From: Pseudomonadota bacterium
GTDB taxonomy: Bacteria > Pseudomonadota > Alphaproteobacteria > JACQOE01
Length of the DNA: 64,000 nt
NCBI GenBank assembly: GCA_016202695.1
Contig: JACQOE010000092.1
Location: 24,490-88,489 of the forward strand
Direction: 5' to 3'
The translations under genes were made by a program, and so were the position numbers. Positions 15,923-51,796 of this stretch are shown here, in pieces. How positions within the stretch are numbered: position 1 is the first letter of the stretch; each line of letters begins with the position of its first letter. Below the pieces are notes generated by a model. The model did no database searches, was not told where the DNA came from, and saw only the letters and a list, made by a program, of their open reading frames with translations.

Positions 15923-15999
<77 letters not shown>

Positions 16000-16126
16000 A
16001 TGTTTTCAAGGGGTTAGAGCCAGCGCCCGGAAGGGCGCACCAGTTACCGGAAGCGTACCGGAAGCACGCGGAATGTAGCGCGCCACTTAGTCTTGGGACC
16101 AACGACAGTTAGTCTTGGTCGAAAAA

Positions 16127-16468
16127 TCAGATGTTCTGCGCGCCGAACTGGGTGTACTCGCGCTCCAGAGAGGCGAAATCGGGCCACTGCTTGCGTAAAT
16201 GGCGATTGGGCGCCCCCGGAGAGGCTTGTGCCGCCAACCGATCAGCGACCCTCTCGATCAGATGCGCCCAGAATGGTTTCGCTCGCTCAAACGCCTGCCG
16301 CGTTGTCATTTGGAGACCATCAGGGCCATTGACCTGGAATAGGTCTTCCCAGAAGGACCGGGGCACCAGCAGTTCAAACCACCAACTCTTATTGTGAAGC
16401 CGACGCTTGGTCTGGATGACCAAGTCGGCGCAGGCCGATTCGCCAGCAGGCTCTATGAGAGTGACCAT
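16127..16468 (-). CDS. hypothetical protein (orphan, lower-GC islet)
   Basis: ATG at 16468 is preceded by GGGAGAAG. The 113-aa product has ordinary, non-shadow composition (Trp/Phe/Lys/Glu present). I recognise no family. Confidence 0.4.
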   Translation of the reverse strand: MVTLIEPAGESACADLVIQTKRRLHNKSWWFELLVPRSFWEDLFQVNGPDGLQMTTRQAFERAKPFWAHLIERVADRLAAQASPGAPNRHLRKQWPDFASLEREYTQFGAQNI

Positions 16469-16708
16469 CTCGTCTTCTCCCGTTAGAGACTGACTATACA
16501 AAAACCCGACGCCAGATGCGAAGGGGCCGCCCTTTGGTAGGCGGCCCCTCGGCCAGCGGAAGGAGTGCGCCCCCTGGCGAGGGGCGCTGATCGAATGTCC
16601 ACTGGGTCGAACGCGCGCGTAAGTCCGCCGTGACGCCGCTATCCCCTCCCCTGGCCCGCGCTCTTCCCCAAAGCCTGATCCGGCCGATTCCGGCTCCCCC
16701 GGCTCCTC

Positions 16709-16951
16709 CTAGACGGCAAGATAGGCCGCTATAGCTGATATCGCCGAAAAGACGAAAGCGGACCCGAGCGCAACAAAGCCGGTTTTGAGCCACCACCTAA
16801 CAGATTGACGAAATGCGTTCTCGGCCCCGCTCTCGCCGTTCCACGTTTGCATCTCCCAAGGTACGGATGCTGTGCCTTTGACGAGCGCCACGGATGCGAA
16901 CACACCTAATGCAGCCGCGAAAAGGGCCGTCGCTAAAGCCACTTCCCTCAT
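16709..16951 (-). CDS. hypothetical small membrane protein (two predicted TM helices)
   Basis: ATG at 16951 is preceded by GGAGG at about 6 nt. The 80-aa product has two hydrophobic helices. Two GC hairpins follow (16523-16548 and 16567-16587). Confidence 0.4.
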   Translation of the reverse strand: MREVALATALFAAALGVFASVALVKGTASVPWEMQTWNGESGAENAFRQSVRWWLKTGFVALGSAFVFSAISAIAAYLAV

Positions 16952-16987
16952 GGCCGCCTCCAACGTGGTTTGCAAGGTATAACATCA

Positions 16988-17023
16988 CCAAAAAGGAAGG
17001 GGCGAGGCCGGAGCCCCGCCCCC
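16988..17023 (-). terminator. rho-independent terminator after the DUF1446 gene
   Basis: The minus strand reads GGGGCGGGGCTCCGGCCTCGCCCC followed by TTCCTTTTTGG. It begins about 75 nt after the stop at 17097. Confidence 0.7.
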
Positions 17024-17096
17024 AAGTTGGGACGCAGCGGCTCCGATCAACGTCTTCGCTGTCGCCTGAGCGGGCCGCCCGCCCGCCGGCGCGCCG

Positions 17097-18494
17097 TCAG
17101 CCCACCTCCTCCACCTCGACCGGGAAGAGGGCGGCGAGGTCGTCCACCTCCATCACGTGATAGGCCGAGAAGCGGTAGGCCCGGCCGGCCACCACCTCGG
17201 GCGGCGTGAACGGAAAGGCGAGGTTGCCGGCGGTCGAGAGCCGGCCGGCGAAGCCGTGGTGGAGGAGGTACTGCTTGGTGGTCTTGGCGACCGTGAGCGC
17301 GAGCGCGAGGGTAGGCGCGACCGCCTCGCCGAGCACGAACACCTCGCGCGGCGGCACCGCCGGCGGCTTCGGCCAGGCGACCACCCCGTCGATCCCGTAG
17401 ACGCGGAAGGAGAGCTGGTAGTCGACCCCTGGCTTCCGCCCGACGAGGTCGGCGACGATCGCCGACATCTCGTCGAGGATGGTTCCGATATTGGCGATGA
17501 AGCGGGGATCGCTCGATCCCGCGATCAGGGCCACCCGCTCGCCCACCAGCGTCGCTCCCTCGACCTTCACCGTGAAACGTCTGGCCGGCTCCCAGCGCGC
17601 GCCCGAAACCCGGGTGCGGTGCGAATCGACCGCCTCGTAGCGGGCGGACTCGACGTTGAGCGTGCCCTCGGGCTCGTGCACGCGGTGGGGATCGCTCTGC
17701 TCGTAGAGGCTATGGGCGGCGACCGACATCGGGGTCGCGTGGCGCTTGGGGTTCATGCTTTCGAGCACGAAGGAGTCGCCTTCCAGCGTGGCGAGCATGG
17801 TGTCGCGACCGCCGGGCACGCAGCAGAGCGAGGCGCACTCGACGATCTTCGCCATGTGCATCGCCGGGCCCATGGGGAAGCCGAGCAGCGACGGGATCGC
17901 GGCGTAGATCGCGGTGTCGCAGGCGCGCCCGGCGATCACCACCTCGGCGCCGGTCTCGAGCGCGCGCACGAACGCCTCGGTGCCCATCTGGCCGACGAGA
18001 TGGGCGGCGCCGTCGACCTCGGCCTCGCCGAACGCGTCCATCTTCCCCAGCGGCCGGATCCGCTTCGCCCGCACCGCCGCCTTGACCACATCCCGCGGCA
18101 GATCGGCGCGGATCGCGGCCATGCGGAACTTGAGGCCCTCGGCGCGGGCGATCTCGCGCACCATCGCCAGCACGGTTTCGAGATGGGGCCTGGCGCCGCC
18201 GGTCCCGGCGGTGCCGATGATCAGCGGCACGCCGATCGACCGCGCGCCGACGAGAAGCCGGCGCAGGTCCTTGCGCGACATCTCGTCGGAAGTGGCGAGC
18301 TCACCGGCCCCCAGGTAGTAGGGCCCGGGGTCGGTCGAGCCCATGTCGGCGCCGATGACGTGGGGCCGGCGCCGGAGCCCCTCGGCGAAGGCCGCCTCGG
18401 GAACCCCGTAGCCGAGCTGGCCGGAGGCGGAAATCACCCGCAGCGCCGCCCGGGCGCCGCCGCATTCCGCGCGCAGGCGATCGAGCGCGCTCAT
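17097..18494 (-). CDS. DUF1446 / AtuA-like (acyclic terpene utilisation family) protein
   Basis: 465 aa with the full-length AtuA-family pattern (GADMGSTDPGPYYLG, IIGTAGTGG, VIAGRACD). The start overlaps the upstream stop as ATGA. Confidence 0.8.
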   Translation of the reverse strand: MSALDRLRAECGGARAALRVISASGQLGYGVPEAAFAEGLRRRPHVIGADMGSTDPGPYYLGAGELATSDEMSRKDLRRLLVGARSIGVPLIIGTAGTGGARPHLETVLAMVREIARAEGLKFRMAAIRADLPRDVVKAAVRAKRIRPLGKMDAFGEAEVDGAAHLVGQMGTEAFVRALETGAEVVIAGRACDTAIYAAIPSLLGFPMGPAMHMAKIVECASLCCVPGGRDTMLATLEGDSFVLESMNPKRHATPMSVAAHSLYEQSDPHRVHEPEGTLNVESARYEAVDSHRTRVSGARWEPARRFTVKVEGATLVGERVALIAGSSDPRFIANIGTILDEMSAIVADLVGRKPGVDYQLSFRVYGIDGVVAWPKPPAVPPREVFVLGEAVAPTLALALTVAKTTKQYLLHHGFAGRLSTAGNLAFPFTPPEVVAGRAYRFSAYHVMEVDDLAALFPVEVEEVG

Positions 18495-18903: not shown

Positions 18904-19680
18904 TCAGGAGCCGTTGCCGCGTCGCGGGTCGGGGATGCGGAGCCGCCCGCGCACGCCTCCCAGCCGCACGGCGGCGTTCTGGCGGCGGGGCACCTCCTCG
19001 ACCTCGGCGGCGAGGAAGGCGGAGGCCAGGGCGGCGAGCTCGCGGTAGAAGGGCCCCCGCGCCGCGCCGCGCACCTCGTCGCAGAAGGTGAAGGCCCACT
19101 TGCCGAGGTGCTCGCCCAGGAAGCGCCGCTGGATTTGCAGGAACCCGTAGGCCGCGGCGGCATCCCCCATCCGCCAGGCGACGGATTCGCGCCGGGCCAG
19201 CTCCTGCATGAACTCGAGCTCGACGCCGAAATGGTCAACGACTCCCGCGCCGCCGGGCGCGAGCGCCACGCCCGCGGCCTCGATGAAGTCCTGCACCTCG
19301 CCCGTCTCCTTGCCGCGATCACCGCCGCCCCCTTGCGCATGGGCCGACTCGTAGGGCGCGATCCGGGCCCCCGCACCGACGAAGAGACGGGCGTACTCGA
19401 GCGCAAGCTCCTTCGCCCGCGCCTCGGCCGGCGCCGCGCTGAGGTCCACCCCAGCGACGCTCAACGCCGTGCCCAGCCGCGACTCGCCCAACCGGGCAAG
19501 GCCCTCTGCCGAGGGCGGGCTCCGGAACGCGGCCGCGAGGAGGCCGTAGACCCCCGCCCGCTCGCCTGCCGACGCGGCAAGCTCCTCGCCCCGGCGCGGC
19601 CGCGTCCGCCTCGCACTCGTCATGAGTCGCGGCCGCGGCCTGCGCGGCGCAAGCGCCGGCAAATAGCCTGCGTTCAGCAT
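18904..19680 (-). CDS. TorD/DmsD/NarJ-family redox-enzyme maturation chaperone
   Basis: ATG at 19680 is preceded by GAGGG. Contains EYARLFVGAGARIAPYES, the E-x-x-x-LF ... PYES core of TorD-like chaperones. The alternative start at 19623 is possible. Confidence 0.75.
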   Translation of the reverse strand: MLNAGYLPALAPRRPRPRLMTSARRTRPRRGEELAASAGERAGVYGLLAAAFRSPPSAEGLARLGESRLGTALSVAGVDLSAAPAEARAKELALEYARLFVGAGARIAPYESAHAQGGGGDRGKETGEVQDFIEAAGVALAPGGAGVVDHFGVELEFMQELARRESVAWRMGDAAAAYGFLQIQRRFLGEHLGKWAFTFCDEVRGAARGPFYRELAALASAFLAAEVEEVPRRQNAAVRLGGVRGRLRIPDPRRGNGS

Positions 19681-19837
19681 GGTATCGCCCTCATCCCCTT
19701 CCCGTCGGTCGCGGTTGGCTCCGCGCCGCAATCATCCTCCCCCCCGCTCGTCCGCCGGGACGTCGCGCGGTGCAGTGGGCGCCCCGCCGCGGCCCCCCGG
19801 GAACGGAGCGGCGACTCTCGGCAAGGCCGCCGAGGGC

Positions 19838-19854
19838 CGCATTGATCTAGGTCA
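19838..19854. promoter_or_regulatory. Fnr/FixK/Dnr-like box, copy A (identical 17-mer to 29437-29453)
   Basis: CGCATTGATCTAGGTCA contains TTGAT-N4-GTCA. It sits in the 324-nt gap between napC-2 and the TorD-like gene, about 165 nt upstream of the latter. Confidence 0.45.
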
Positions 19855-20004
19855 CGTTGGGAGGCGAAACCTGCGCCGGTGTCGGACCCGGCGGAGGCCA
19901 CGGGCGCGGAGGCCAGCGCCGGAGCCGATCCCCGGCGGGGGGCGGGCCGTCCCCGCGCCGCAAGATGCCCCGGCGCAGCCGGTTCAGTCCGCGAAGATCA
20001 TGCC

Positions 20005-20610
20005 CTAGCTGTCCTTCCAGCCCTTGGGGAGCTTGTGGGCGATCCCCTTGTGGCAGTCGATGCAGGTCTCCCCCTTCTCGAGCGCCTCGGCGTGGCGGCG
20101 GCGGGCCGGGCGCACCTGCGCCTCGGGATTCATGAACAGCACGTTGTGGCAGTTGCGGCACTCGCGCGAGTCGGTGTTCTTCATGCTGGTCCACACCCGC
20201 TTGGCCATCTCCAATCGCGCGGCCTCGAACTTCTCGGGCGTGTCGACCGTGCCCAGGATCTTATGAAACAGTTCGTTGGTGGCCTGCACCTTGCGGATCG
20301 CCTTGTAATACCACTCCTTGGGAACGTGGCAGTCGGAGCAGATCGCCCGCACCCCGGAGCGGTTGGAGTAGTGGATGGTCTCCTTCAACTCCTTGAAGGG
20401 CGTGTCGCGCATCTCGTGGCACGAGGTGCAGAAGGTCTCGGTGTTCGACAGCTCCATGGCCCAGTTGTAGCTGCCCCAGAAGCCGATGCCGCCCCCGAAA
20501 CCGACGATCAGCAAGACCGCGAGCGGCCATCTCGGGTGGGGGCGCCACAGCAGTCTCCATGCCCACAAGAGGAGGTTCCTCTTGCCGCCGTTCGACTCCC
20601 CTTGCTCCAT
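20005..20610 (-). CDS. NapC/NirT-family membrane-anchored tetrahaem cytochrome c (copy 2)
   Basis: ATG at 20610 is preceded by GGGAGGA. One N-terminal TM helix and four CXXCH motifs (CTSCH, CSDCH, CRNCH, CIDCH) in NapC/NirT spacing. Confidence 0.9.
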   Translation of the reverse strand: MEQGESNGGKRNLLLWAWRLLWRPHPRWPLAVLLIVGFGGGIGFWGSYNWAMELSNTETFCTSCHEMRDTPFKELKETIHYSNRSGVRAICSDCHVPKEWYYKAIRKVQATNELFHKILGTVDTPEKFEAARLEMAKRVWTSMKNTDSRECRNCHNVLFMNPEAQVRPARRRHAEALEKGETCIDCHKGIAHKLPKGWKDS

Positions 20611-20758
20611 GTCCGTGTTCCTCCCGGTGTCCTTCGGCATTGGAACGATACCTCACGTCCAAGCGACCGCCCCCGGCCCCGGCCGAAGGCGGCTCGCGAT
20701 CAGCAGGTGAAAAGGCCGCGGGCCCGCCGCCGAGCGGACGAGCCCGCACCGAACATCC

Positions 20759-22786
20759 TCATTCGGCTGGCAGGGACTGTATGTAGGCCAGCACGTCGGT
20801 CAAGATCTGCGGGTCGAGAACCCTGAGCGCCGGCATCCCCTCGTCGGGATGGCCGTTGAGCATCTTGTGCAGCGCCGCCCACGGATCGGCCTTGGCGACG
20901 GCTCCGAGGGGCGGCATCACCGCCCGCATGCCGCGGCCGTCCTCGTTGTGGCACTTGGCGCAGATGGTGTCGTAGTACTCCTTGTGCTTGGTCTTGTCGC
21001 CTTTGGACAACTGGTTGGCCGGATTGACGAAATTCGTCATGTCCACCTGCCCCTTGGCGACGAAGTTGGCGAGGTCGCGCAGGTCGTGCGCGTCCATGAC
21101 CGTATCGAAGCCGTGGTTCTCGTCGCGCAGCACGGCGACGACCTTGTCCGGCGCCGCCCCGGCCAAGCCCCGCACGCCCCTGATTCCGGTGTAGTGCTCG
21201 CCCTTGCCGTAGACGCCGTCCCGGCCCCGGTAGTCCCAGCCGTGGCACTCCACGCAGCGCCAGTTGGCCGAGGCCTCGCGCGCGTAGACCTTGTCGCGCG
21301 GATAGGCCGGATGCGCCCGCGTCGGCGCGGGAACGCGGATCTCCCGATACCAGTTGTCATAGAGGCGCCCGCCGCGGACGATCGAGGCCAGCGCCTCCTC
21401 GGTCGGAAGGGTCTGAACGAAGGCCAGCACATCGACCAGGATGGACATGTCGAGCAGCCTCAGCGCCGGCATCTTCTTGCTGGGATGGCCGTTCACCATC
21501 TTGTGCAGCGTCTGCCACGGGTTGTCCCGGGCCACCCTGGCGAGCGGCGGCATCGAGCGCACGCCGAGCCCGTCCCGGCCATGGCAGGTGGCGCAGATCG
21601 AGTTGTAATAGGCCTCGTGCTTGACCCCGTCGCCCTTCGACTGCCCCGTCGCCCGGTCGATGTACCTGTCGACCTCGACCTGGCCCTTGCTGACGAAGTT
21701 GGCGAGGTCGCGCAGGTCGTGCTCGTCGAGGTAGGCGCGGTAGGGTTTCAGGCCGCGGAAATCGTGGGTCTCGTTCTTGAGGATGGTGATGATCTTCTCG
21801 GGGTCGGCCCCGGCCATGCCACGGATGCCCTTGATGCCCGTGTAGTGGTCGCCCGAGCCATAGGCCCCGTCCTTGCCGCGGTAGTCCCAGCCGTGGCACT
21901 CGACGCAGCGCCAGTTGGCGGCGGCATCGCGGGCGAACCTGCGGTCGCGCGGATAGGCCGGGTGGGGCCGGGTCGGCGCCGCCGCCCCCAGCTCCACATA
22001 CCAGTTGTCGTAGAGCCGCCCGCCACGATCCATGGAGGCCAGCAGTTCTTCCTTCGGCAAGGTCTGGATGAAGGCCAGGACGTCGACCAGGACGTCGAGC
22101 CCGAGGGCGCGAAGCGGCGGCATCCGCTCGCTCGGATGGCCGTTGAGGACCTTGTGCAGCGAGGCCCACGGGTTTTCCGAGGCGAAGGTCCCGAGCGGCG
22201 GGATGGAGCGGACGCCGAGTCCGTCGCGGCCGTGACAGTTGGCGCAGATGGCGCTGTAGTAGGCTTCGTGCTTGGCCCCGTCGCCCTTCGACTTCCGGCT
22301 CGCCCGATCGATGTAGGTGTCCATATCGAGCTGGCCCTTGCTGACGAAGTTGGCGAGGTCCCGCAGGTCGCGGCCGTCCATGACGCCGCCGTACTGGTGG
22401 GTGCCGTCCGTCAGCACGGCGACGATCTTGGCCGGATCGGCCCCGGCCATGCCGCGGATTCCCTTGATCCCGGTATAGTGGTCGCCGGAGCCGTAGGCGC
22501 CGTCCTTGCCGCGATAGTCCCAGCCGTGGCACTCCACGCAGCGCCAGTTGCTCGCCGGGTCGTTGGCGAACTTCTTGTCGCGCGGATAGGCGGGGTGCGG
22601 CTGGGTGGGCGCCCGCCCCCCGACCATCATCTGGTACCAGTTGTCGTAGAGGCGCCCGCCGCGGACGATGGAGGCGAGGTTTTCCTCGGCCGCCAGCGAC
22701 GTCGTCGCCGCGCCCGCGCCGAGCCCAAGAGCCGCGACGAGCGCCAGCAGGGCGACGGTGCTCCTTGGCGAATGATTCCCGAACAT
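20759..22786 (-). CDS. periplasmic hexahaem cytochrome c built from three tandem dihaem units
   Basis: ATG at 22786 is preceded by GAGGA. Sec signal peptide (ALLALVAALGLGAGAATTSLAAEE). CVECH x3 plus CANCH/CATCH/CAKCH. Each unit ends in an NGHP..(M)P Met-ligand-like motif. Confidence 0.85.
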   Translation of the reverse strand: MFGNHSPRSTVALLALVAALGLGAGAATTSLAAEENLASIVRGGRLYDNWYQMMVGGRAPTQPHPAYPRDKKFANDPASNWRCVECHGWDYRGKDGAYGSGDHYTGIKGIRGMAGADPAKIVAVLTDGTHQYGGVMDGRDLRDLANFVSKGQLDMDTYIDRASRKSKGDGAKHEAYYSAICANCHGRDGLGVRSIPPLGTFASENPWASLHKVLNGHPSERMPPLRALGLDVLVDVLAFIQTLPKEELLASMDRGGRLYDNWYVELGAAAPTRPHPAYPRDRRFARDAAANWRCVECHGWDYRGKDGAYGSGDHYTGIKGIRGMAGADPEKIITILKNETHDFRGLKPYRAYLDEHDLRDLANFVSKGQVEVDRYIDRATGQSKGDGVKHEAYYNSICATCHGRDGLGVRSMPPLARVARDNPWQTLHKMVNGHPSKKMPALRLLDMSILVDVLAFVQTLPTEEALASIVRGGRLYDNWYREIRVPAPTRAHPAYPRDKVYAREASANWRCVECHGWDYRGRDGVYGKGEHYTGIRGVRGLAGAAPDKVVAVLRDENHGFDTVMDAHDLRDLANFVAKGQVDMTNFVNPANQLSKGDKTKHKEYYDTICAKCHNEDGRGMRAVMPPLGAVAKADPWAALHKMLNGHPDEGMPALRVLDPQILTDVLAYIQSLPAE
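20762..22684 (-). repeat. intragenic tandem triplication (units of roughly 630-650 bp)
   Basis: The landmark CCCAGCCGTGGCACTC(C/G)ACGCAGCGCCAGTTG recurs at 21235, 21886 and 22519, giving spacings of 651 and 633 bp (217 and 211 codons). Confidence 0.9.
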
Positions 22787-22867
22787 GACATCCTCATCCA
22801 GTGTTGGGCATCGAAGCGGAGGCGGAAACACTTTCCCCGGCCCCCGGAAGACGGCGCCTCCGGTCGG

Positions 22868-25417
22868 CTAAGCCTTGGTGAGCGTGACCACGACGTCGCC
22901 CCAGCGCTGCTGACCGCTGACCGGTTCCGGGGAGTTGGGGATCACCCAGTTGGGATGGGTGCCGTTGGTCGGCCACCATTTCAGCCGGTCGAAGGGAGCA
23001 TCGTCAACGCCGAAGGGCGCCCTCTTCGAGGCGTATCTTCCGTACTCCCAGCGGCCGGCGTGGGTGGAAATCGCGACGATCCCGGGCACGATCGAGTGGC
23101 TCCACTTCGCCGTGGTCTCGATCTCCCCGACCTTTGACTTGATCCGGACGCGGTCGCCGTCGCCGATCCCGTGCTCGCGCGCGGTCGTGGGATGGATGCG
23201 GGCCGCGTTGTCGAAATAGATCTCGGTCAGCCACTTGCAGTTTTGGGTCGTCGACAGGGTCTGAACGTTGACCTTGTAGGTGGTGAGGACGAGATCGCCC
23301 GCCCGCATCTCGGCGTGCTCCGGCACCGGCCGGTAGGTGGGAAGCGGCGGCAGGCCCCGTTCGGCGAGGACCGCCGAGTAGAGCTCGAAGTAGCCGGTCT
23401 TGTTGATCCGGTCGGGCCGGAAGCCGATGAAGATGCGCTCGCGCATGAGCTGCGCCTCGTAGCCCTTGTGGGCGCCCGGCGTCCGGCGATAGCCGACCCG
23501 GCGGGCCTCGGCCTCGCTCGCGACCCCGGCCTTCTTCCAGTTCCAGTAGACCCCCATCTCCTCGTCGAAGATCACCCCCTCGGTGAGGAACGAGGTCTTG
23601 AACTCCTCGTTGCTGATCTCCCGCCGGTAGCCGTAGTAGGCGGGCTTGGCGCCGGGATCGTGCCAGACTCCCGCCTTGGTCAGGCCCCTGAACCCGCCGG
23701 CCTTGTCGGCCACCTCCGGGGTCATCTGGCAGGCCTTGCTGACGAACTCCTCGCCGGTCTTGAAGCCGAGCGGGATGCCGAGGCGCTCGGCCAGCTCGCA
23801 GCAGACGTCCTTGAAGTCGCGCGCCTCGCCAAGCGGCGGCACGAGCGGCTGGCGAAGGTAGTACTCCGGCACCTGGCTGGGGGAGACGCCGTCCTCGAAG
23901 TCGTAGCGTTCGAGGTAGGTCGCGTCGGGAAGGATGAGGTCGGCGAGCGCCGCCGACTCGTCGTAGAACGGCGTCACGGCGACGGTGAAGGGAATCAGGG
24001 CCTCGTCCTTGAGAACGTCGATGTTCTCGCCCACCTCGCCGTTGGCGTAGACCGGATTGTAGATGTACCACAGGTACACCTCGGGCCGGCCGGCGCGCCC
24101 GTCCTTGATCATCTTCAGGACCTGATGGCCGACGCCGTTGATCGGCAGGGAGACGGCGCCGTCGAAGCCGTTGAGTATCTCCAGTCGCCGGGTCGGCGGC
24201 CGGTCCTGCGGACCCTTCGGGTAGGACCACTCGGGGACCACGGCCCGGCACCGCCCGCCGGGGTTGTCGATGTTGCCGGTGATGGCGGCGAGCAACAGGA
24301 TCGCGCGCTCGGTGTCGACGCCGTTGTAGTTCGAGCTCACCGCGCGCGAACTCAGGACACAGGCCGGCTTGGCGGTCGCGAACTCGATCGCGAGGTCGCG
24401 GATGGTGCGGGCCGGGACGCCGCTGATCGGCTCCGCCCACTCCGGGGTGTAGGGGGCGAGGTGCGCCTTCAGCGCCTCGACCTTCTCGGCCACGGTCGCG
24501 TCGTTCCGCGGCGTGACCTTGCAGAACTCGAGGAACGCCTCGCCCTCGCCGCGGAACAGGCCCTCGTTCATCACCACGTTGCCCATGGCGAGGGCGACGG
24601 CGAGGTCGGTGCCGGGCTTGATCGGGATCCAGGCGTTCGACTTGGCGGCCGTGTTCGACATCCTCACGTCGAAGGTGACGATGCGGAAGCGGCGCTCGGC
24701 GATGCCGGTGGCCAGGATGCGGGCGAGCGCGACGTGGTTGGTGTGCGCCTCGAGCACGTTGGCCCCGAAGTTGAGGACGAAGCGGGTGTTGGCGAAGTCC
24801 CAGTTGTCCTCGTGCGCGCCCCAGGTGAGCTGAAACGCGGCCTGCCGCGCCCCCTGGCCGAGGCAGGTCTGGTTGACCACCGTGCCGGTGCCGTAGGTGG
24901 GCAGGAAGACCTCGTTGATCAGCCGGTCGGCGCTGGCCGAGATCCAGCCGTGATGGAACATGAACTTCTCGGGCTGGCCGGCGTCGCGCAGCTTCTTCAG
25001 CCGTCCGGCGAGGTCGTCGAGGGCCTCCTTCCAGGAGATCCGCTGCCACTTCCCCTCGCCCCGCTTGCCGGCGCGCCTGAGGGGATAGAGGATGCGATCG
25101 GGGTCGTAAATCAGGTTGACGCTCGCCTGGCCGCGGGCGCAGAGCTTGCCGGCGGTGCGGATGGAGGCGGGCTGGCCCTCGACCTTGACCATGCGCCCCT
25201 CCTCGACGTAGCCGATCGCCGGGCAGCGGCTGACGCACTGCGCGCAGGCGGTGGCGACCGCTTCGCGGCCCGTGCCGCTGAGGGGGGAGTAGCCGGCGCC
25301 GCCGGGCTTGAACTCCCTGGCCTCGCGGGCGATGGCGGGCTTGAGCGCGGCCGCCGATACGGTCGCCGCCGCGGTGCCGATCTTCAGGAACTCCCGCCGC
25401 CTGATCATGAGGTCCAT
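22868..25417 (-). CDS. molybdopterin (bis-MGD) oxidoreductase catalytic subunit, Psr/Phs/Ttr-like, Tat-exported
   Basis: ATG at 25417 (MDLMIRRREFLKIGTAAATV) gives a twin-arginine motif. FS0 site CAQCVSRC...LCARG. GKRGEGKWQRISW and the remaining MopB pattern are present. 849 aa with no internal stop or frameshift. Confidence 0.92.
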   Translation of the reverse strand: MDLMIRRREFLKIGTAAATVSAAALKPAIAREAREFKPGGAGYSPLSGTGREAVATACAQCVSRCPAIGYVEEGRMVKVEGQPASIRTAGKLCARGQASVNLIYDPDRILYPLRRAGKRGEGKWQRISWKEALDDLAGRLKKLRDAGQPEKFMFHHGWISASADRLINEVFLPTYGTGTVVNQTCLGQGARQAAFQLTWGAHEDNWDFANTRFVLNFGANVLEAHTNHVALARILATGIAERRFRIVTFDVRMSNTAAKSNAWIPIKPGTDLAVALAMGNVVMNEGLFRGEGEAFLEFCKVTPRNDATVAEKVEALKAHLAPYTPEWAEPISGVPARTIRDLAIEFATAKPACVLSSRAVSSNYNGVDTERAILLLAAITGNIDNPGGRCRAVVPEWSYPKGPQDRPPTRRLEILNGFDGAVSLPINGVGHQVLKMIKDGRAGRPEVYLWYIYNPVYANGEVGENIDVLKDEALIPFTVAVTPFYDESAALADLILPDATYLERYDFEDGVSPSQVPEYYLRQPLVPPLGEARDFKDVCCELAERLGIPLGFKTGEEFVSKACQMTPEVADKAGGFRGLTKAGVWHDPGAKPAYYGYRREISNEEFKTSFLTEGVIFDEEMGVYWNWKKAGVASEAEARRVGYRRTPGAHKGYEAQLMRERIFIGFRPDRINKTGYFELYSAVLAERGLPPLPTYRPVPEHAEMRAGDLVLTTYKVNVQTLSTTQNCKWLTEIYFDNAARIHPTTAREHGIGDGDRVRIKSKVGEIETTAKWSHSIVPGIVAISTHAGRWEYGRYASKRAPFGVDDAPFDRLKWWPTNGTHPNWVIPNSPEPVSGQQRWGDVVVTLTKA

Positions 25418-25425
25418 CCGCTTCC

Positions 25426-26376
25426 CTAGATGCCGACCGGCCCGGTGATCTGGCCCGCCACCACCACCACGTAGCGCAGCATGAAGCCGCCAATCAGGAC
25501 GCTGACCGGAACCACGACCTCCACGCTCCGCGGCGCCGCGAAGCTCCGGTGATAGAAGAGCGGCGGGACGACGTAGACCATTTCGAGCAGGGCCGGCAGC
25601 AGCAGGCCCACCAGCACCACCCAGATCCAGAACATCGCCGCCATGCGGCCGCCGGGGAGGATGATCGAGACCGCCTCCTTGACCCCGCCGACGGTGAGAT
25701 GGGCGAACATCAGGAAGAGGAAGATCACCATCAGCTCGAGCCCGATGAGCATCACGTCCGAGACGGTGAGGAGGTAGCCGCTCTCGTGGAACTGCTTCTC
25801 CGCCGCACGGTCGGCGCCCTTCCGGTGCACGAGCGCACGGCCGAGGATGATCGTGGCAATGCCGGTCGAGAGCGAGGAGACCAGGAACAGGAGGGCCAGG
25901 ATCGGGGAATTCCAGAAGGGCCGCGACGGCATCGCCCCGAGCATGACGCCGGTATAGACGGCGACGCCGATGCCGAGCGGCATGCACACCCAGGCCAGGC
26001 CCCGGCGCGCCCCCTCCAGGCGGTCGCCGCGGTGCGCGCCCGGCGGCAGGAAGGTGGCGCCATAGAGGACGGTGATGGTCATGAACAGGAGCAGCAGCCA
26101 CGAGCCGATCGACATCGGCGAGAGGTTGATCAGCTTGAAAAGATTGAGCGCCCGGTCCCACCGCCCGAGCTCGAAGATGATCATCCCGGTGCCGAGCATC
26201 ACCGGGAAGGGGCCGAGCAACGCGCCGTAGCGCGCGAGCGAGAAGTGGGCGCCGGCGAACCGCCCGCCGCCGCCGCGCAGCAGGACGTAGGAGCTGACCG
26301 TCACCGCGCCCGCGCCGACTCCGGCCAGGAACAGGTAGCCGATGACGGGCAGTCCCCAGTAAAGCTCCCCGGACAT
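25426..26376 (-). CDS. NrfD/PsrC/TtrC-type integral membrane quinone-interacting subunit
   Basis: ATG at 26376 lies 2 nt after the FeS-subunit stop. 316 aa with about 8 hydrophobic helices. The N-terminus WGLPVIGYLFLAGVGAG is typical of the NrfD family. Confidence 0.9.
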   Translation of the reverse strand: MSGELYWGLPVIGYLFLAGVGAGAVTVSSYVLLRGGGGRFAGAHFSLARYGALLGPFPVMLGTGMIIFELGRWDRALNLFKLINLSPMSIGSWLLLLFMTITVLYGATFLPPGAHRGDRLEGARRGLAWVCMPLGIGVAVYTGVMLGAMPSRPFWNSPILALLFLVSSLSTGIATIILGRALVHRKGADRAAEKQFHESGYLLTVSDVMLIGLELMVIFLFLMFAHLTVGGVKEAVSIILPGGRMAAMFWIWVVLVGLLLPALLEMVYVVPPLFYHRSFAAPRSVEVVVPVSVLIGGFMLRYVVVVAGQITGPVGI

Positions 26377-26378
26377 CC

Positions 26379-27179
26379 CTATCTCCAGTGCTTCCGCCGG
26401 CGGTGGTTGTCGACCTCCACCTGCCGGACCTCCGGCCGCCTGGCGTCGATCGAGTCGGTGTGGTCGGCGGCGATGTAGTAGACGTTCGGCAGCGTGCCCA
26501 TCTCGCCGCGCAGCACCGTCACCCGTTCGCTGGCGATGAGCTTGGAGATCTCGCTCTCGGGGTCGCTCACGTCGCCGAAGATGCGGGCGCCGCCGACGCA
26601 GGTGCTGACGCAGGCCGGGGCCACCCCCTTGGAGACGCGGTGCAGGCAGAAGTCGCACTTGTCGGCGGCGCCGGTGATGGGGTTGAGGAAACGCGCCTCG
26701 TAGGGGCAGGCCTGGATGCAGTACTTGCAGCCGATGCACAAGCCCACGTCGACCACCACCGCGCCGTCCTGCGGACGCTTGTAGGTGGCGTTGGTGGGGC
26801 AGACATAGACGCAGGGCGGGATCGAGCAGTGGTTGCAGAGCCGCGGCAGGAAGCTGCGCCCGACATAGGGGTACTCGCCCTTCTCGACGTACTCGACCCA
26901 GGACCGGTTCTCGCCGACCGGCACGTCGAACTCGCTCTTGCAGGCCACGGTGCAGGCGTGACAGCCGATGCAGCGCCGCACGTCGATCACCATCCCGTAC
27001 TGGATGCCGCGGCCGTTTCTCGGCGCCGGCTCCGTGGGCGGGGCCGAGAGGGCGGTGGCGGCGGCCACCGCGACCGTCGCCGCGAGACCGCCGGCCAGGG
27101 CCTGGATCGCCTCGCGCCGCCCCGGCGCCGGGCAGACCTCTTCGCTCTCGCGGCCCCCGATTTCACGCTCGTCGGCCAT
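26379..27179 (-). CDS. four-cluster [4Fe-4S] electron-transfer subunit (PsrB/TtrB/DmsB-like) with an RR-containing leader
   Basis: ATG at 27179. Four Cys groups (CIGCHACTVAC, CNHCSIPPCVYVCP, CIGCKYCIQACP, CDFC..ACVSTC). The N-terminus GRREAIQALAGGLAATVAVAAA resembles a Tat signal. Confidence 0.92.
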   Translation of the reverse strand: MADEREIGGRESEEVCPAPGRREAIQALAGGLAATVAVAAATALSAPPTEPAPRNGRGIQYGMVIDVRRCIGCHACTVACKSEFDVPVGENRSWVEYVEKGEYPYVGRSFLPRLCNHCSIPPCVYVCPTNATYKRPQDGAVVVDVGLCIGCKYCIQACPYEARFLNPITGAADKCDFCLHRVSKGVAPACVSTCVGGARIFGDVSDPESEISKLIASERVTVLRGEMGTLPNVYYIAADHTDSIDARRPEVRQVEVDNHRRRKHWR

Positions 27180-27239
27180 CTCCAACTCCCGACTGGAGGC
27201 TGTACGAAGTCGCGGGCTCGCGCCGGCGCGTGAACGGCG

Positions 27240-27830
27240 TCATTTCTTCCCCGCCTCCGGCTTGCGGAACTCCGTCTCCCGCACCTCGAGCGTGCGGTGG
27301 ACCAGGCTGTAATGGCACTCGATGCAGGTTTCCTTCTTCTCCCGCGCGCGCTCGTGCGCGAGCTGCCCGCGCCGGCGTTTCGGCTTCAGCTCCGACTCGA
27401 TGTGGCAGGTCCGGCAGGTGACGCTGTCGAACTCGAACAGCCGCTCGCGCACCCGATAGGTGGTCGCCGCGCGCGGCGGGATCCATTCCCCCGCCCGCTC
27501 CGCGGCGCGGTCGCGGAAGCGGCCGAAGAGGTCGGTGACGCTGGCGAAGTGAAGGTAGGCGGCGGCCGCCCGCACCGTGCCGGGGGGAAGGTGGCAGTCG
27601 ACGCAGCGGGCCTGTCCGCCGTCGGGGGTTGACCGGTGGGGCCGGCTCCAGGTCAGCCTCGCCGTCGGGTCGTACTCCCACTTCAGGTGACAGTAGGTGC
27701 AGACACCGTCCTGGGCGAGGAAGTTTCGCGTTACCGGTTCGAACGCCCATACGGCGCCGACGATCAGCACCGCGAGGATCGCGGCCGCAACCGCCAAGGC
27801 CCGGCGCGACAGGTATCCTCGGAGCTGCAT
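27240..27830 (-). CDS. NapC/NirT-family membrane-anchored tetrahaem cytochrome c (copy 1)
   Basis: ATG at 27830 is preceded by GAGGGA. One N-terminal TM helix and four CXXCH motifs (CTYCH, CVDCH, CRTCH, CIECH). Only distantly similar to copy 2. Confidence 0.88.
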   Translation of the reverse strand: MQLRGYLSRRALAVAAAILAVLIVGAVWAFEPVTRNFLAQDGVCTYCHLKWEYDPTARLTWSRPHRSTPDGGQARCVDCHLPPGTVRAAAAYLHFASVTDLFGRFRDRAAERAGEWIPPRAATTYRVRERLFEFDSVTCRTCHIESELKPKRRRGQLAHERAREKKETCIECHYSLVHRTLEVRETEFRKPEAGKK

Positions 27831-27922
27831 GGTTCCCTCGTGAGCGCAGGCAGGGAGAGCATCCGGCGGGGAAGGCCCGTACCCGGCCGGATACGCCGGC
27901 CGGGTACGGGGGACTCACGCGG

Positions 27923-29251
27923 TCAGTTGAGCTTCACCGCCTGGATGTCGGCCTTCTTGCCGAATCCCACGGTACGCGGGAACGCGACAAGGTGGCCACG
28001 GGTGGTGATGTTGTTGTCGTGGATGGCGAAGCCAAAGGTGTAGACGCCGCCGTCCTTGAGGGCCTTGTCGTCGGGGTTGGCGAGGTTGAGCGGCCTGGCC
28101 CACTGGACCGTCCAGGTGCCGTCCTTCCACTCGCCCTTGACGTTGGCGTTGTCGGCCGCCGAGCCGGTCGAATCCGCCCGGCTGATCAGGTACTGGGGAA
28201 GCAGATCGCCCTCCTTCCATCCGGCATTCGGATCGAAGGCGACGTCGTTCTGCCCCTTCACCAGCACCTGCGGCTTGTCGGCCTTGCCCACGTCCTCGGC
28301 GCGCAGGGATTTGACGCCCGCCTTGCCCGCGTCGAACATGAACTTGGGCTGCTTGGTGGCGGCGTCCATGTTCGAGCTGAACATGTTCTTGCCGGCGTCG
28401 AAATTCCGGTACTCGAGCACGTAGCCGTCGTCGGCCATGCCGACCGGGTTGGAGCGGTGCGCGCGCCACTGCATCAGCTCGAGGAACTCGCCCTTGGCCA
28501 TCATCTGGTCGATGTCGGCCTTCGACTTGGTCGCCGACCAGGTGGCCGCGTCGTCGGTGCGCGTGCCGGGGATGTACTTGCGCACGTCGCTCTTCTTCAG
28601 CTCCTTGCCGAGGAGCGCGTTGGCCGTCACCTGCTCCTTGGTCGCCTCGCCCGGCATGTCGCGAAGGCCGTTGTGGCAGGTGATCCAGCAACCCTGCTCG
28701 GCGAAGAGCGGGACCTTGCCGTCGTCGAGCATGATCGAGAAGCGGTCCTCGTAGATCGCCGGCTTCTTGCCGCCCTGGACATCCGCGTCGAGCTGCGGGC
28801 CGCCGTAGGACTTCCAATCCTTGCCGTCGAACCGGTACATCGGATAGGCGACTCCCGGGCGCGGCGCCTGGGTCTTCCACTGGGCGCGGATGTAGGCGAA
28901 CTTGGCGTCGTAGGCGACCTGGATGCTGAGATCGTTAGCCCCGGGCTTGCCGCCGAGCTTGGCCGGCTCGATCCGCGGGTCGCCCTTGACTAGCTTCTCG
29001 CCGATGTCCTTCTCCTCGCCCTCGTGGCAGTCGAGGCAGGCCGCGCCCTGCGCCACCTTGCGGTCGCCGCGCTTGTGCTCCGAGCTGCGGAGCCACTGGT
29101 AGCTCGACTGGCCCGGCCAGAAGAGCGTGATCGTCTTGGCCGGCACCTTCGACCAGTCGACCTTCGACCAGTCGACCGAGGGCGGGTCGGCCGCCAGCGC
29201 CGGGCCAGCCAGCAGGAGTGCCGCGCCAGCCGCCAAAACAAGTCGTCTCAT
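27923..29251 (-). CDS. secreted haem protein with an EB_dh-like (cytochrome c-552/DMSO-reductase-gamma-like) domain
   Basis: ATG at 29251 is preceded by AAGGAGGG. Sec signal with cleavage ALA/AD. One CXXCH (CLDCH) and one CX3CH (CWITCH). The C-terminal beta-rich region ends in FGFAIHDNN..GHLVAF. The domain call is from memory of the family pattern. Confidence 0.7.
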   Translation of the reverse strand: MRRLVLAAGAALLLAGPALAADPPSVDWSKVDWSKVPAKTITLFWPGQSSYQWLRSSEHKRGDRKVAQGAACLDCHEGEEKDIGEKLVKGDPRIEPAKLGGKPGANDLSIQVAYDAKFAYIRAQWKTQAPRPGVAYPMYRFDGKDWKSYGGPQLDADVQGGKKPAIYEDRFSIMLDDGKVPLFAEQGCWITCHNGLRDMPGEATKEQVTANALLGKELKKSDVRKYIPGTRTDDAATWSATKSKADIDQMMAKGEFLELMQWRAHRSNPVGMADDGYVLEYRNFDAGKNMFSSNMDAATKQPKFMFDAGKAGVKSLRAEDVGKADKPQVLVKGQNDVAFDPNAGWKEGDLLPQYLISRADSTGSAADNANVKGEWKDGTWTVQWARPLNLANPDDKALKDGGVYTFGFAIHDNNITTRGHLVAFPRTVGFGKKADIQAVKLN

Positions 29252-29436
29252 GATCGATCCCTCCTTCTGTGGTTCGCTTGCGTCCTGTTTCGCGGATCGA
29301 AGGCCGGGGGCGGCGGACTCGCCGGAGCGAGCCGCGCCCTTGCCACCCGTCGCCAACCCCGCCGCCATGATTGTGCGCTGCGGCGTTCGTTGTGCGTCGC
29401 GGTAGGAGCCACATTAAAGGTAACCGCGCCCCGCGG

Positions 29437-29453
29437 CGCATTGATCTAGGTCA
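29437..29453. promoter_or_regulatory. Fnr/FixK/Dnr-like box, copy B (identical 17-mer to 19838-19854)
   Basis: CGCATTGATCTAGGTCA lies about 195 nt upstream of the first cluster gene (minus strand) and about 230 nt upstream of the divergent small gene at 29678. An AT-rich stretch follows. Confidence 0.45.
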
Positions 29454-29677
29454 TAGGTCAAAAAATTAGAATACAACATCGGACTCGCCAGGAAAGCCCC
29501 GCACACGGAAAGGGGAGGCCGGCGCGCTTTCCCATTCGGTTTCGCGCAAGCGTTCGCCGCCGGAGAGTCCCACGTGGGCCGCCCGGGAATAAATCCTCGC
29601 CCGTCCTGTTGAGACGGGTGAGGCCGGCCACGCGAGTCGGTCGCATTCGAAATCACGAGACGGGAGGGTGAACACCC

Positions 29678-29929
29678 ATGCTCAAGCGTATCCTGCTCGC
29701 CGCCGTCGCCAGCGCCTTCCTCGCCGGGCCGGCGCTCGCCTCGAGTTGCCCCAGGCACATGAAGACAGTCGACGACAAGCTCGCCACCAATCCCACCCTC
29801 AGCGCCGCCCAGATGAGCGAGGTGAAGAAGTACCGAGCCGAGGGCGAAACGCAGCACAAGGCCGGCAAGCACAAGGAGTCGCTCGACGCCCTGGCCAAGG
29901 CCGAGGGGATTCTCGGCATCAAGATGTAG
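29678..29929 (+). CDS. small secreted protein, unknown function
   Basis: 83 aa. Signal peptide MLKRILLAAVASAFLAGPALA/SS with a Lys/Glu-rich mature part. A strong terminator follows. Confidence 0.6.
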   Translation: MLKRILLAAVASAFLAGPALASSCPRHMKTVDDKLATNPTLSAAQMSEVKKYRAEGETQHKAGKHKESLDALAKAEGILGIKM

Positions 29930-29963
29930 CCGGTTCCAGCCGCAACCATCCCTCGCATGACTC

Positions 29964-30001
29964 GGGAGGCCTGTTCCCCGGCCTCCCATTTTTTCTTTTT
30001 C
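29964..30001 (+). terminator. rho-independent terminator
   Basis: GGGAGGCC-TGTTCCCC-GGCCTCCC followed by ATTTTTTCTTTTT, 35 nt after the stop at 29929. Confidence 0.85.
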
Positions 30002-30104
30002 GATTCCGGCGCGACCGGGCTTGGGCTAGTGTCCCCTGGCCCGCCCGGCGTTCCGCTCCGGCGCGGCCCGCCCCTGTCATCCCAGCCCCGGGCCCCGGCG
30101 GCCG

Positions 30105-30887
30105 ATGGTCGACCTCAACCCCTTTGCCGACGTCTCTCCGCTCGCGCTCGTCGCGCTCGTCGCCATCTACTTCGTCTCGTTCCTGATTCGCGGCCTGGTC
30201 GGCTTCGGCTCGAACACGCCGGCGGTCATCTTCAGCGCCTTCATCCTGCCACCCCACGATGCGGTGATCGTCTCGCTGGTCGCCGCGACCCTGTCCCAGG
30301 CCCAGCTCCTGCCCCAGGGCCTCAAGGCCGGCGACTGGCGGATCGCTCGCCCGCTGATCGCCGGCAGCTTCCTCTCGATCCTGGTCGGAGTGTGGATCTT
30401 CGCCCGCCTCGAGGCGGCCTGGCTGATGCTGGTGATGGGGGTGCTGCTCGCCGCCGCCATCGCCGCCGACATGGCCCACGCGACCGAGCGGCTGGGCCGG
30501 TGGTTCGATCCCCGCGTGCCGACCTTCGCCTTCGCCCTCGCCGCCTTCGCCGGGCTGTTCGCCACGATCGCCGGGGCGGGGGCGATGTACTTCCTCTCGG
30601 TCTACACCCGCTGGGCCTGCCCGGGCCCGTGGTCCTTCCGGGGGACCAACATCCTGGTCGCGGCGCTGTTCAATTTCTGGCGCGCCGGCGCGGTGGCGCT
30701 GGCCGGGCTGTTCACGCCGAAGCTCCTCGTCGGCGGGGCGCTGATGCTTCCGGTCGCGCTCCTCGGCGGCTGGCTCGGCGGGTATCTGACCGAGCGCATC
30801 CCCGCACGCCGCTTCTACCGCATCCTCCAGGTGCTGCTGCTCCTCGCCGCGGCCAGCCTCGCCTGGAAGGGCTTGGCGCGGATTTGA
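30105..30887 (+). CDS. TauE/SafE-family (DUF81) anion exporter
   Basis: 260 aa, polytopic membrane protein. N-terminus FLIRGLVGFGSNTPAV and overall TauE/SafE pattern. Confidence 0.8.
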   Translation: MVDLNPFADVSPLALVALVAIYFVSFLIRGLVGFGSNTPAVIFSAFILPPHDAVIVSLVAATLSQAQLLPQGLKAGDWRIARPLIAGSFLSILVGVWIFARLEAAWLMLVMGVLLAAAIAADMAHATERLGRWFDPRVPTFAFALAAFAGLFATIAGAGAMYFLSVYTRWACPGPWSFRGTNILVAALFNFWRAGAVALAGLFTPKLLVGGALMLPVALLGGWLGGYLTERIPARRFYRILQVLLLLAAASLAWKGLARI

Positions 30888-48065: not shown

Positions 48066-50522
<2,457 letters not shown>

Positions 50523-51719: not shown

Positions 51720-51796
51720 GACCGCGAGCCACCCGCCCCGCGCCGGGCGGGCGCGGGCGGAGGACGCGGTCGATGGTCGAGTGAGGACGGCCTCTC

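Follow-up and report, generated by a model that had tools for sequence, protein, structure and literature searches.

A putative molybdoenzyme of a previously unnamed DMSO-reductase-family lineage, encoded together with c-type cytochromes in an alphaproteobacterial genome

A stretch of 64,000 nucleotides (hereafter the window; contig JACQOE010000092.1, positions 24,490 to 88,489, of a Pseudomonadota bacterium of the alphaproteobacterial lineage JACQOE01) hosts a cluster of eight minus-strand genes, predicted to encode a molybdoenzyme of the DMSO reductase family exported by the twin-arginine translocation (Tat) pathway, its iron-sulfur (FeS) and membrane subunits, four c-type cytochromes and a chaperone. 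By its sequence, the catalytic subunit (hereafter Mo subunit) belongs to a lineage of the family previously unnamed, and it falls within that lineage into a subclade featuring a remodelled active site. Five of the eight genes form a cassette found in other genomes as well. We put at about even the chances that the cluster specifies a low-oxygen respiratory reductase, in which a live molybdoenzyme would receive electrons through several quinol inputs and act on a substrate that is probably not arsenic. The parts are all of known kinds, being those of a complex iron-sulfur molybdoenzyme (CISM), with B and C subunits of the ttr type and a feed of the PcrQ/PcrO type. The genes and two putative regulatory sites are the following.

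27923..29251, minus strand: periplasmic c-type cytochrome of EB_dh fold, with a Sec signal peptide; probably dihaem (CXXCH at residue 72 and CX3CH at 188); Pfam EB_dh 195 bits
27240..27830, minus strand: NapC1, divergent NapC/NirT tetrahaem cytochrome, cassette-specific; Cytochrom_NNT 83 bits; four CXXCH; one N-terminal membrane helix
26379..27179, minus strand: FeS subunit, 4x[4Fe-4S], TtrB/NrfC/DsrO type, with its own twin-arginine (RR) leader; Fer4_11; 16 cluster cysteines
25426..26376, minus strand: NrfD/PsrC-type integral membrane subunit, quinone-interacting; Pfam NrfD 154 bits; about 8 helices by hydropathy
22868..25417 (probable start 25408), minus strand: Mo subunit, Tat-exported, bis-molybdopterin guanine dinucleotide (bis-MGD) catalytic subunit; PF04879/PF00384/PF01568 (Molybdop_Fe4S4, Molybdopterin, Molydop_binding)
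20759..22786, minus strand: hexahaem cytochrome, secreted, three tandem dihaem (DHC-like + class I) modules; six CXXCH
20005..20610, minus strand: NapC2, near-canonical NapC/CymA-type tetrahaem quinol dehydrogenase; Cytochrom_NNT 244 bits; TIGR02161 270 bits (cut-off 310.6)
18904..19680, minus strand: TorD/NarJ-family maturation chaperone; Pfam Nitrate_red_del PF02613 74.8 bits (cut-off 22.2)
29437..29453: FNR/FixK/Dnr-type box, copy 1 (TTGATCTAGGTCA within a 17-mer), about 190 nt upstream of the EB_dh gene
19838..19854: FNR/FixK/Dnr-type box, copy 2 (same 17-mer), about 165 nt upstream of the TorD gene

The open reading frames (ORFs) proposed for these genes in the initial annotation were all recovered at the same positions, with ATG starts and single terminal stops, and the domain assignments match Pfam and NCBIfam profile results for all eight. 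Intergenic gaps (92, 60, 2, 8, 81, 148 and 324 nt, from the EB_dh to the TorD gene), the lack of a sensor gene inside the cluster and the haem count, 15 haem CXXCH (1+4+6+4) plus one CX3CH, were also as annotated. A sixteenth CXXCH sits in the FeS protein, and is a cluster motif, not a haem site. NapC1 and NapC2 both pass the PF03264 gathering cut-off (24.1); the TorD protein reaches none of the NCBIfam equivalog cut-offs. The ORF of the Mo subunit, read as 849 aa, is sound, but its true start is probably the fourth codon (MIRRREFLK, coordinate 25408), because an identical database protein is 846 aa long.

The Mo subunit had been placed outside the characterised clades, and this is true for all the reference clades compared. 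No NCBIfam equivalog cut-off is reached by it, or by the other family members scored. The best score was obtained with PhsA (NF012032, 317.5 bits against a cut-off of 694), and those with ArrA (NF041714, 190 against 1600), QrcB (NF041783, 182 against 440) and TtrA (NF011567, 104 against 1750) are lower. Identity is 25-26% to ArxA, 27% to PhsA over the long alignment, 25% to DmsA, 23% to a Ttr-like enzyme, and 24% to TtrA in a partial alignment of 293 residues; fragments of Shewanella ArrA and of PsrA (N-terminal) are 28% and 34% identical, respectively. The closest solved structures are PsrA (2VPW, E = 1.6e-57) and ArrA. A neighbour-joining tree (100 bootstraps) was built with TtrA from an E. 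coli ttrRS-ttrBCA plasmid (L091; loci are cited here by L numbers), the Ttr-like enzyme from the plasmid arsenic island of Citrobacter arsenatis (L092), PhsA, DmsA and two ArxA proteins encoded by canonical arxXSR-arxB2ABCD loci (Sulfuricella pSCD, Cereibacter pORIO3). The ArrA and PsrA fragments entered a simpler tree only, and QrcB was compared by profile score only. The family is monophyletic in 100/100 replicates, and so are the family plus a relative from Azoarcus sp. KH32C, described below, and the subclade hosting the window protein. The family is sister to ArxA in 56/100 replicates, and joins Ttr in 5/100 and Phs in 0/100. In the simpler tree the ArrA fragment lies beside ArxA and the PsrA fragment beside PhsA, both outside the family. 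The identification of the family as Arx, or as a Ttr-like arsenate reductase, was ruled out by comparison with the plasmid ArxA, TtrA and Ttr-like sequences.

Features of CISM enzymes of the DMSO reductase family, namely Tat leader, FS0 iron-sulfur site, Mo domains, four-cluster FeS protein and NrfD subunit, are all present, and the cysteine at the canonical position is missing. Searches of the literature on the gene combination and on new arsenite oxidase clades found no account of the lineage, the cassette or the subclade with the displaced cysteine. Also the eight-gene architecture, which the initial annotation had not recognized as a described operon, was found in no publication. Unassigned lineages close to these clades are mentioned in two broad phylogeny papers, neither of which describes this one. 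A paper that seemed to deal with an "alternative arsenite oxidase" was discarded, as it concerns SoeABC.

The Mo subunit carries a RRREFLK Tat leader and an FS0 site with CX2CX3CX27C spacing. The Tat motif and the four FS0 cysteines are invariant in an alignment of 20 sequences spanning both active-site types detailed below. Motifs TFDVRxSNTA, LPDxxYLERYD and TQNxxWL in the pterin segments are similarly invariant, and these segments can be aligned to those of PsrA and ArrA. Together with a TorD gene of the family type nearby, these features sustain the reading of a genuine molybdoenzyme, and argue against a dead subunit of the kind found in alternative complex III (ACIII). The Cys in VNQTCLGQG, named as the candidate Mo ligand in the initial annotation, is two residues before the canonical position. 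The ligand Cys of all Cys-ligated references, and of most family members, falls in one alignment column. In the subclade of the window this column is occupied by Gly, and an invariant Cys is found two residues earlier. The motifs compare as follows.

Ligand-cysteine motif, reference enzymes: ArrA SHSSVC; ArxA GHSSMC; PhsA THASTC; TtrA AHGAYC
Ligand-cysteine motif, family: canonical members NHTSIC-EGGK; window's subclade NQT-C-LGQGAR
Second motif: ArrA RGRY; ArxA YGRGW; canonical family members HYGRMK; KH32C KYGRNR
Second motif: Citrobacter Ttr-like enzyme SGRIV; window's subclade HHGWIS

Among the top 120 matches to the Mo subunit, 75 have the displaced Cys and all are subclade members. In 72 of these 75 the second motif features G-W, hence the two changes co-vary. 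Of the 36 canonical matches among the 120, 34 have YGRM. Canonical members have a G-R motif and a H-x-x-x-C...K pattern like those of ArrA and ArxA. The pocket of the subclade thus differs for the shift of the Cys by two residues, the replacement of Arg by Trp, the loss of the His and the replacement of Lys by Arg. In the structure of ArrA, the motif Arg and the His and Lys flanking the Cys are said to contact arsenate. Since the three residues are all changed, the subclade of the window would lack an arsenic-type pocket. We assume that molybdenum would be ligated by the displaced Cys. The initial annotation had made its reading depend on the Mo ligand and on pterin-contact residues. The pterin motifs are kept, and the Cys of the canonical column is replaced by Gly. 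Two loci, L025 (9878-12523, NHASTSQSGK) and L030 (843-3500, NHASISQSGK), have Ser at the canonical ligand column, and are placed between the canonical clade and the displaced-cysteine clade.

At least 253 relatives of the Mo subunit were found among the species-representative genomes scanned, and 80 loci were kept and mapped with the eight window proteins. More than 120 database relatives are at least 59% identical to the window protein, and nearly all are metagenomic. The habitats of the relatives are mostly marine sediment, oxygen-deficient water, vents and groundwater, and Tropicimonas sp. IMCC6043 is the one cultured host among the 80 loci. About 20 other loci, from two sister clades, have the whole series EB_dh-NapC1-FeS-NrfD-Mo. 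The eight-gene unit of the initial annotation has therefore to be reduced to these five conserved genes, as the hexahaem, NapC2 and TorD genes recur in close relatives but are not fixed. Genes are arranged in four ways.

Architecture 1: FeS-NrfD-Mo-TorD; majority of loci
Architecture 2: FeS-Mo-TorD plus a downstream multihaem gene and a second FeS gene; Deltaproteobacteria and Nitrospirae
Architecture 3: EB_dh-NapC1-FeS-NrfD-Mo; TorD never directly after the Mo gene
Architecture 4: the five-gene cassette, followed by a second family member with TorD

In L093, where the Mo subunit is 66% identical to that of the window, a 678-aa hexahaem cytochrome (67% identical) is encoded beside the cassette, next to an integrase. 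In L094 (Mo subunit 67% identical) a NapC-like gene and then a canonical paralogue follow the Mo gene, and a two-module version of the hexahaem protein (55% identical) and a TorD (41% identical) are also encoded. Shorter versions of the hexahaem protein are found in L094, L022, L043, L059 and L077, and that in L022 has two modules. The window TorD scores 67-155 bits against the TorDs adjoining family Mo genes, and by this similarity would be of the kind that relatives encode after their Mo genes. NapC1 has 245 homologues, which lie on the same contigs as Mo homologues. Their small number and this location suggest a dedicated role for NapC1 as a subunit. EB_dh cytochromes form a much larger family, with members elsewhere too.

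Integrase or insertion sequence (IS) transposase genes are found directly beside the cassette in L093 (191-1465), L002 (4526-6018) and L003 (5167-5874), and the sole difference between L001 and L002 is an IS insertion upstream of the EB_dh gene. These neighbours fit with horizontal mobility of the module. In L009 (1085-8170) and L011 (2750-8155), both from one gammaproteobacterial metagenome-assembled genome, genes encoding a MtrA-like decahaem protein and a MtrB/PioB porin directly precede NapC1-FeS-NrfD-Mo. A small EB_dh/DOMON monohaem protein is encoded upstream of the MtrA-like gene in both, and a MtrC-like octahaem protein further upstream in L009 only. In these two loci a molybdoenzyme operon is joined to an outer-membrane electron conduit.

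The 17-mer CGCATTGATCTAGGTCA is found in exactly two copies in 64 kb, one before the EB_dh gene and one before the TorD gene. Within it is a TTGAT-N4-GTCA box, of FNR/FixK/Dnr type. Of 14 upstream regions scanned in subclade relatives (13 located before the cassette, one before the hexahaem-like gene of L022), 8 have boxes of the TTGAT-N4-ATCAA type, about 0.01 being expected per region. Seven of the box-bearing regions precede the cassette (L093, L003, L004, L005, L006, L001, L018), and the eighth is that of L022. This phylogenetic footprint points to low-oxygen control of the cluster. The shared 17-mer ties TorD to the regulon of the cassette, plausibly as a separate transcription unit with a promoter region of its own. 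The window ORFs scanned include no gene for a regulator of the CRP/FNR family, and the search for a sigma-54 promoter in the upstream region of the window gave nothing above chance.

The EB_dh cytochrome features two haem motifs, which are invariant in 120 homologues, as are residues H265, M272, M305, H411 and H420. The invariance of the CX3CH makes it probable that the protein is dihaem. The hexahaem cytochrome contains six CXXCH, as annotated, and is better described as three tandem dihaem modules, 61-70% identical to each other. PDB sequence searches gave no match for the EB_dh protein and NapC1, and only a marginal match to TsdA for the hexahaem protein (E = 0.007). In Azospira suillum the NapC/NirT tetrahaems PcrQ and NapC, and the EbdC-like dihaem proteins PcrO and NapO (ethylbenzene-dehydrogenase gamma fold), carry electrons from quinol to the perchlorate and nitrate reductases, and double mutants respire neither nitrate nor perchlorate (PMC5845722). 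The EB_dh protein of the window fits this description of the PcrO/NapO type for its EB_dh fold, its two haem motifs and its position beside a NapC-type gene and a Mo enzyme; the likeness to PcrO, NapO and PcrQ is drawn from the published description (PMC5845722), fold, motifs and gene context. On this precedent, the EB_dh protein and NapC1 would make a known kind of quinol-to-periplasm feed. No description of the full cassette was found, but the EB_dh and NapC pair has genetic precedent in PcrO/PcrQ and NapO/NapC. The Azospira enzymes differ in that PcrAB and NapAB are soluble and have no NrfD/FeS module, whereas the window pair is in a putative operon with a complete membrane-bound B-C-A enzyme. 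A 540-aa fusion of NapC/NirT tetrahaem and EB_dh domains is encoded by plasmid p4 of Azospirillum brasilense Sp7 (L095, 6269-7891). The fusion gene is beside nirS, between two cytochrome-cd1-domain genes and a pseudoazurin-type gene.

The order FeS, NrfD, Mo is that of ttrBCA, as the initial annotation had noted, and the same is found in L091. The FeS subunit is 53% identical to the plasmid TtrB, and scores 232.6 bits with the NCBIfam TtrB model (NF011569, cut-off 416). It also scores 208 bits with the DsrO model (NF045797), just above the cut-off of 200. The TtrB score is higher, and the dsrM, K, J and P genes are absent; to name the protein DsrO would be a misannotation. A homologue in the Citrobacter arsenatis plasmid island (L092) bears that name, and the DsrO model appears to over-call TtrB-like proteins. 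Both the "DsrO" name of the FeS protein and the names "PhsA/PsrA" given in databases to Mo genes of the lineage are probably wrong.

A model can be built on what is reported above about the genes present, their conservation, the separate place of the family in the tree, the motifs and the regulatory boxes; how the subunits touch, which way electrons flow and whether the cofactors are in place we infer. The Mo subunit, equipped with FS0, would dock on the TtrB-like four-cluster FeS protein, and this in turn would sit on the NrfD membrane subunit, exchanging electrons with quinone and quinol, as expected from family knowledge. NapC1 and the EB_dh dihaem protein would provide a second, haem-based route linking the quinone pool, the periplasm and the enzyme, in keeping with the genetic precedent. 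Quinol would thus feed the enzyme via NrfD and via NapC1/EB_dh, and in the window genome also via NapC2 and the triple-dihaem cytochrome. The enzyme would be made at low oxygen, and act as a periplasm-facing terminal reductase. Its relatives by descent look like arsenic-oxyanion enzymes. A substrate different from arsenic is expected because the arsenic-type pocket is remodelled and arsenite sensing has been lost. That the substrate could not be assigned from the sequence had been stated at the outset, and holds.

Many relatives are linked to arsenic. About 19 of the 80 loci encode a PhnD-like binding protein, with genes for a sigma-54 regulator and a histidine kinase next to it. AioX (E about 1e-66) is a far closer match to these binding proteins than are PtxB and PhnD. 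The one encoded beside the cassette in L073 keeps Cys106, Ser161/Ser163, His192, Asp210 and the Val-Phe-Leu signalling loop of AioX, whose roles in arsenite binding and signalling have been described (PMC5908839). Sigma-54 -24/-12 elements precede the cassette in several relatives, from both the sister clade and the subclade, and ACR3 or ArsA genes are found in four loci (L012, L051, L075, L082). Plasmid pAZKH of Azoarcus sp. KH32C (L084, 52310-68244 of the record) hosts a FeS-NrfD-Mo-TorD cluster, encoding a Mo subunit 37% identical to that of the window, which is not among the published arx clusters. This cluster adjoins arsA, ACR3 arsB and an aioXSR-like trio, and is annotated only generically. 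In seven gammaproteobacterial loci (L043, L050, L054, L057, L059, L060, L077) the cassette is followed by genes for a 304-aa protein and for a second family enzyme (FeS-Mo), and in the longer loci of this group, four or five, TorD, a GNAT gene and aioXSR-like genes come next. A single arsenite-type sensor appears to serve both of these paralogous molybdoenzymes. Neither X-S-R genes nor ars genes were found among the ORFs scanned in the 64-kb window. By sequence and gene context, canonical members of the family are linked to arsenic, and the subclade of the window would lack those features.

Several observations weigh against the reading of a low-oxygen reductase. Some sister-clade cassettes are under the control of AioX/ArxX-type arsenite sensors and sigma-54 regulators, as arsenite oxidases are, and because of this regulation the inherited haem wiring could let electrons out instead of in. 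Control by FNR-type regulators is found for microaerobic oxidases and lithotrophy as well. Gly occupies the canonical Mo-ligand position, and an AlphaFold model of the Mo subunit, made from the 20-sequence alignment, was too poor for a check of the ligand (mean pLDDT, the predicted local confidence score, 47.6). Most cassettes have no adjacent TorD gene, and the tree did not include SrdA, SrrA, SreA, SoeA and ActB. As to operon structure, scans for terminators and promoters inside the cluster resolved none, and were uninformative.

The initial annotation considered a reductase and a dehydrogenase equally possible. Both are kept, but not with equal weight, as the conserved FNR-type boxes and the NapC-type feeds favour the reductase. 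That the same complex works as a dehydrogenase is, in our opinion, rather unlikely. A reduced metalloid or sulfur compound would be oxidized at the Mo site, and electrons would reach cytochrome-c-dependent terminal enzymes by way of the FeS chain, then the haems of NapC1 and EB_dh and the triple-dihaem cytochrome, NrfD being a side route to quinone. In line with this are the sister-clade cassettes that diverge from aioXSR/arxXSR-type genes, with a sensor retaining every arsenite-binding residue of AioX and with sigma-54 promoters before the cassette, and the weak sister relationship to ArxA. Cytochrome c domains of class I typically serve oxidases as electron carriers, the MtrA/MtrB-type conduit of L009 and L011 could export electrons, and in ACIII and Qrc the haem-FeS-NrfD path works in either direction. 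The subclade of the window, however, has neither arsenite sensors nor the residues of an arsenic-type pocket, its FNR boxes are conserved, the cluster includes a near-canonical NapC quinol dehydrogenase, and the EB_dh/NapC pairs tested genetically feed reductases only.

An arsenic enzyme proper, of a third type beside Aio and Arx/Arr that would either oxidize arsenite or reduce arsenate in respiration, has a small chance of being the right answer for the window. The AioX-type sensors, the ACR3 and ArsA genes and the pAZKH cluster described above would all suit it, and so would the G-R and H-x-x-x-C...K motifs that canonical members have in common with ArrA and ArxA. Arx and Arr enzymes belong to the same Cys-ligated super-clade, have identical FS0 spacing and use TorD and NrfD partners, and canonical family members are also akin to them for the AioX/ArxX-type sigma-54 regulation. 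Identity is low, however (25-28%), and genes are in the order B-C-A in place of A-B-C, which is found in all arx clusters (PMC6549141). The window protein is outside the ArxA clade, has HHGWIS in place of a YGRGWG-type motif, and lacks the (R/K)GRY motif of ArrA; A-B-C-D gene order and arxXSR are similarly missing. In the subclade, haem subunits are added, XSR genes are absent, and the four pocket changes, which co-vary in 72 of 75 members, remove the arsenic-type residues. The window hosts FNR-type boxes instead of X-S-R or ars genes.

A wider and more daring proposal, of which we are doubtful, is that the lineage is a third arsenic-oxyanion family, with an Arr/Arx-like pocket and under the control of AioX-type sensors, and that the subclade of the window was neofunctionalized, by the shift of the Mo-ligand cysteine and the change of the oxyanion-binding Arg to Trp, towards a different and as yet unrecognized respiratory substrate. 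The complex would be a three-port hub for substrate, quinone and cytochrome c, plugged in some bacteria into a MtrAB conduit. If so, in some bacteria a molybdoenzyme would exchange electrons with extracellular minerals.

That the cluster encodes a divergent Ttr, Psr or Srd enzyme (tetrathionate, thiosulfate, polysulfide or selenate reductase) decorated by extra cytochromes is quite improbable. TtrBCA, of Salmonella and of the E. coli plasmid, shares with the window cluster the B-C-A order, a Tat-exported FeS protein, to which that of the window is 53% identical, a NrfD-type anchor and a periplasmic Cys-type bis-MGD subunit with FS0. In contrast, the window Mo subunit is about 170 residues shorter than TtrA and does not group with it, TtrRS or ttrRS-type genes are not found nearby, and four c-type cytochrome genes and TorD are present. 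As to PsrABC and PhsABC, PsrA is the closest structure, PhsA gives the best NCBIfam score, relatives are annotated as PhsA/PsrA, and the eight-helix NrfD-type anchor is common to all. These enzymes differ in having another gene order and no cytochrome subunits. All the Mo subunit scores are far below the cut-offs, and the bootstrap values, obtained in a tree that had no SrdA, separate the family from both Ttr and Phs.

ACIII (ActABCDEF) and Qrc (QrcABCD) similarly combine a NrfD-like protein, a four-cluster FeS protein, a Mo-family subunit and multihaem cytochromes; the presence of NrfD, FeS and multihaem genes in one operon is an architectural resemblance only. ActB and QrcB have no cofactor and no FS0, whereas FS0 and pterin motifs are conserved in the window protein, and no sequence similarity was detected between NapC1 and PDB chains, ActA included. 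FS0 cysteines have the sole known role of connecting the Mo cofactor to the FeS subunit. It is very improbable that the Mo subunit has no catalytic activity, like its counterparts in ACIII and Qrc, the complex being only a quinol:cytochrome c or cytochrome:quinone oxidoreductase: the Gly at the ligand position, the ACIII-like set made of NrfD, FeS, Mo-like subunit, membrane-anchored multihaem and further haem protein, the scarcity of adjacent TorD genes and the location of the L009 and L011 genes, which occupy the expected place of the inner-membrane quinone oxidoreductase of the Mtr pathway, speak for it, but against it are the invariant FS0 cysteines and pterin motifs, the displaced Cys in 75 of the 75 subclade members scored, the TorD gene bearing the same box as the first gene, the low QrcB score and the lack of ActB chains among PDB matches with E <1e-10.

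The cassette would thus give a live molybdoenzyme the haem wiring otherwise known from the cofactor-less ACIII and Qrc. Canonical members of the family are a testable candidate for a further class of arsenic-respiring or arsenic-oxidizing enzymes, and the subclade of the window is a natural experiment in the re-tooling of an active site. As DMSO-reductase-family enzymes set which inorganic compounds can be respired, an unassigned lineage is a gap in biogeochemical gene annotation. The predictions are testable, because Tropicimonas, which has the five-gene cassette, is in culture.

The window is a chromosomal region of alphaproteobacterial type, hosting dnaA, dnaN, gyrB, polA, pckA and a chvG/chvI-like pair. 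dnaA, dnaN and gyrB are grouped at 48066-54794 (minus strand), which suggests that the chromosomal replication origin is near. GC content is 0.72 in the window, 0.64-0.70 in the seven genes from NapC2 to EB_dh and 0.75 in TorD. After a tRNA-Arg(CCG) gene (15923-15999, plus strand) the GC content is as low as 0.60-0.65 for about 1.2 kb (16000-17200), and this stretch contains only short ORFs matching no family. Located 3 kb from the cluster, it could mark an island edge; an att-like repeat of the tRNA-Arg 3' end was searched for and not found. Just upstream of the cluster, a 191-aa ORF (29414-29989, minus strand) is probably spurious. An 83-aa gene on the plus strand (29678-29929), encoding a signal peptide and preceded by a GGAGGG ribosome-binding site, has no Pfam match, and a terminator-like hairpin at 29964-29987 belongs with it. 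This gene lies between the cluster and a divergent TauE/SafE-family permease gene (30030-30887, plus strand). TauE/SafE permeases are encoded also in the Citrobacter arsenic island (L092, 2831-3643) and in L093 (20965-21708), 8 kb from the cassette. Their proximity is not conserved across loci, and may be a coincidence.

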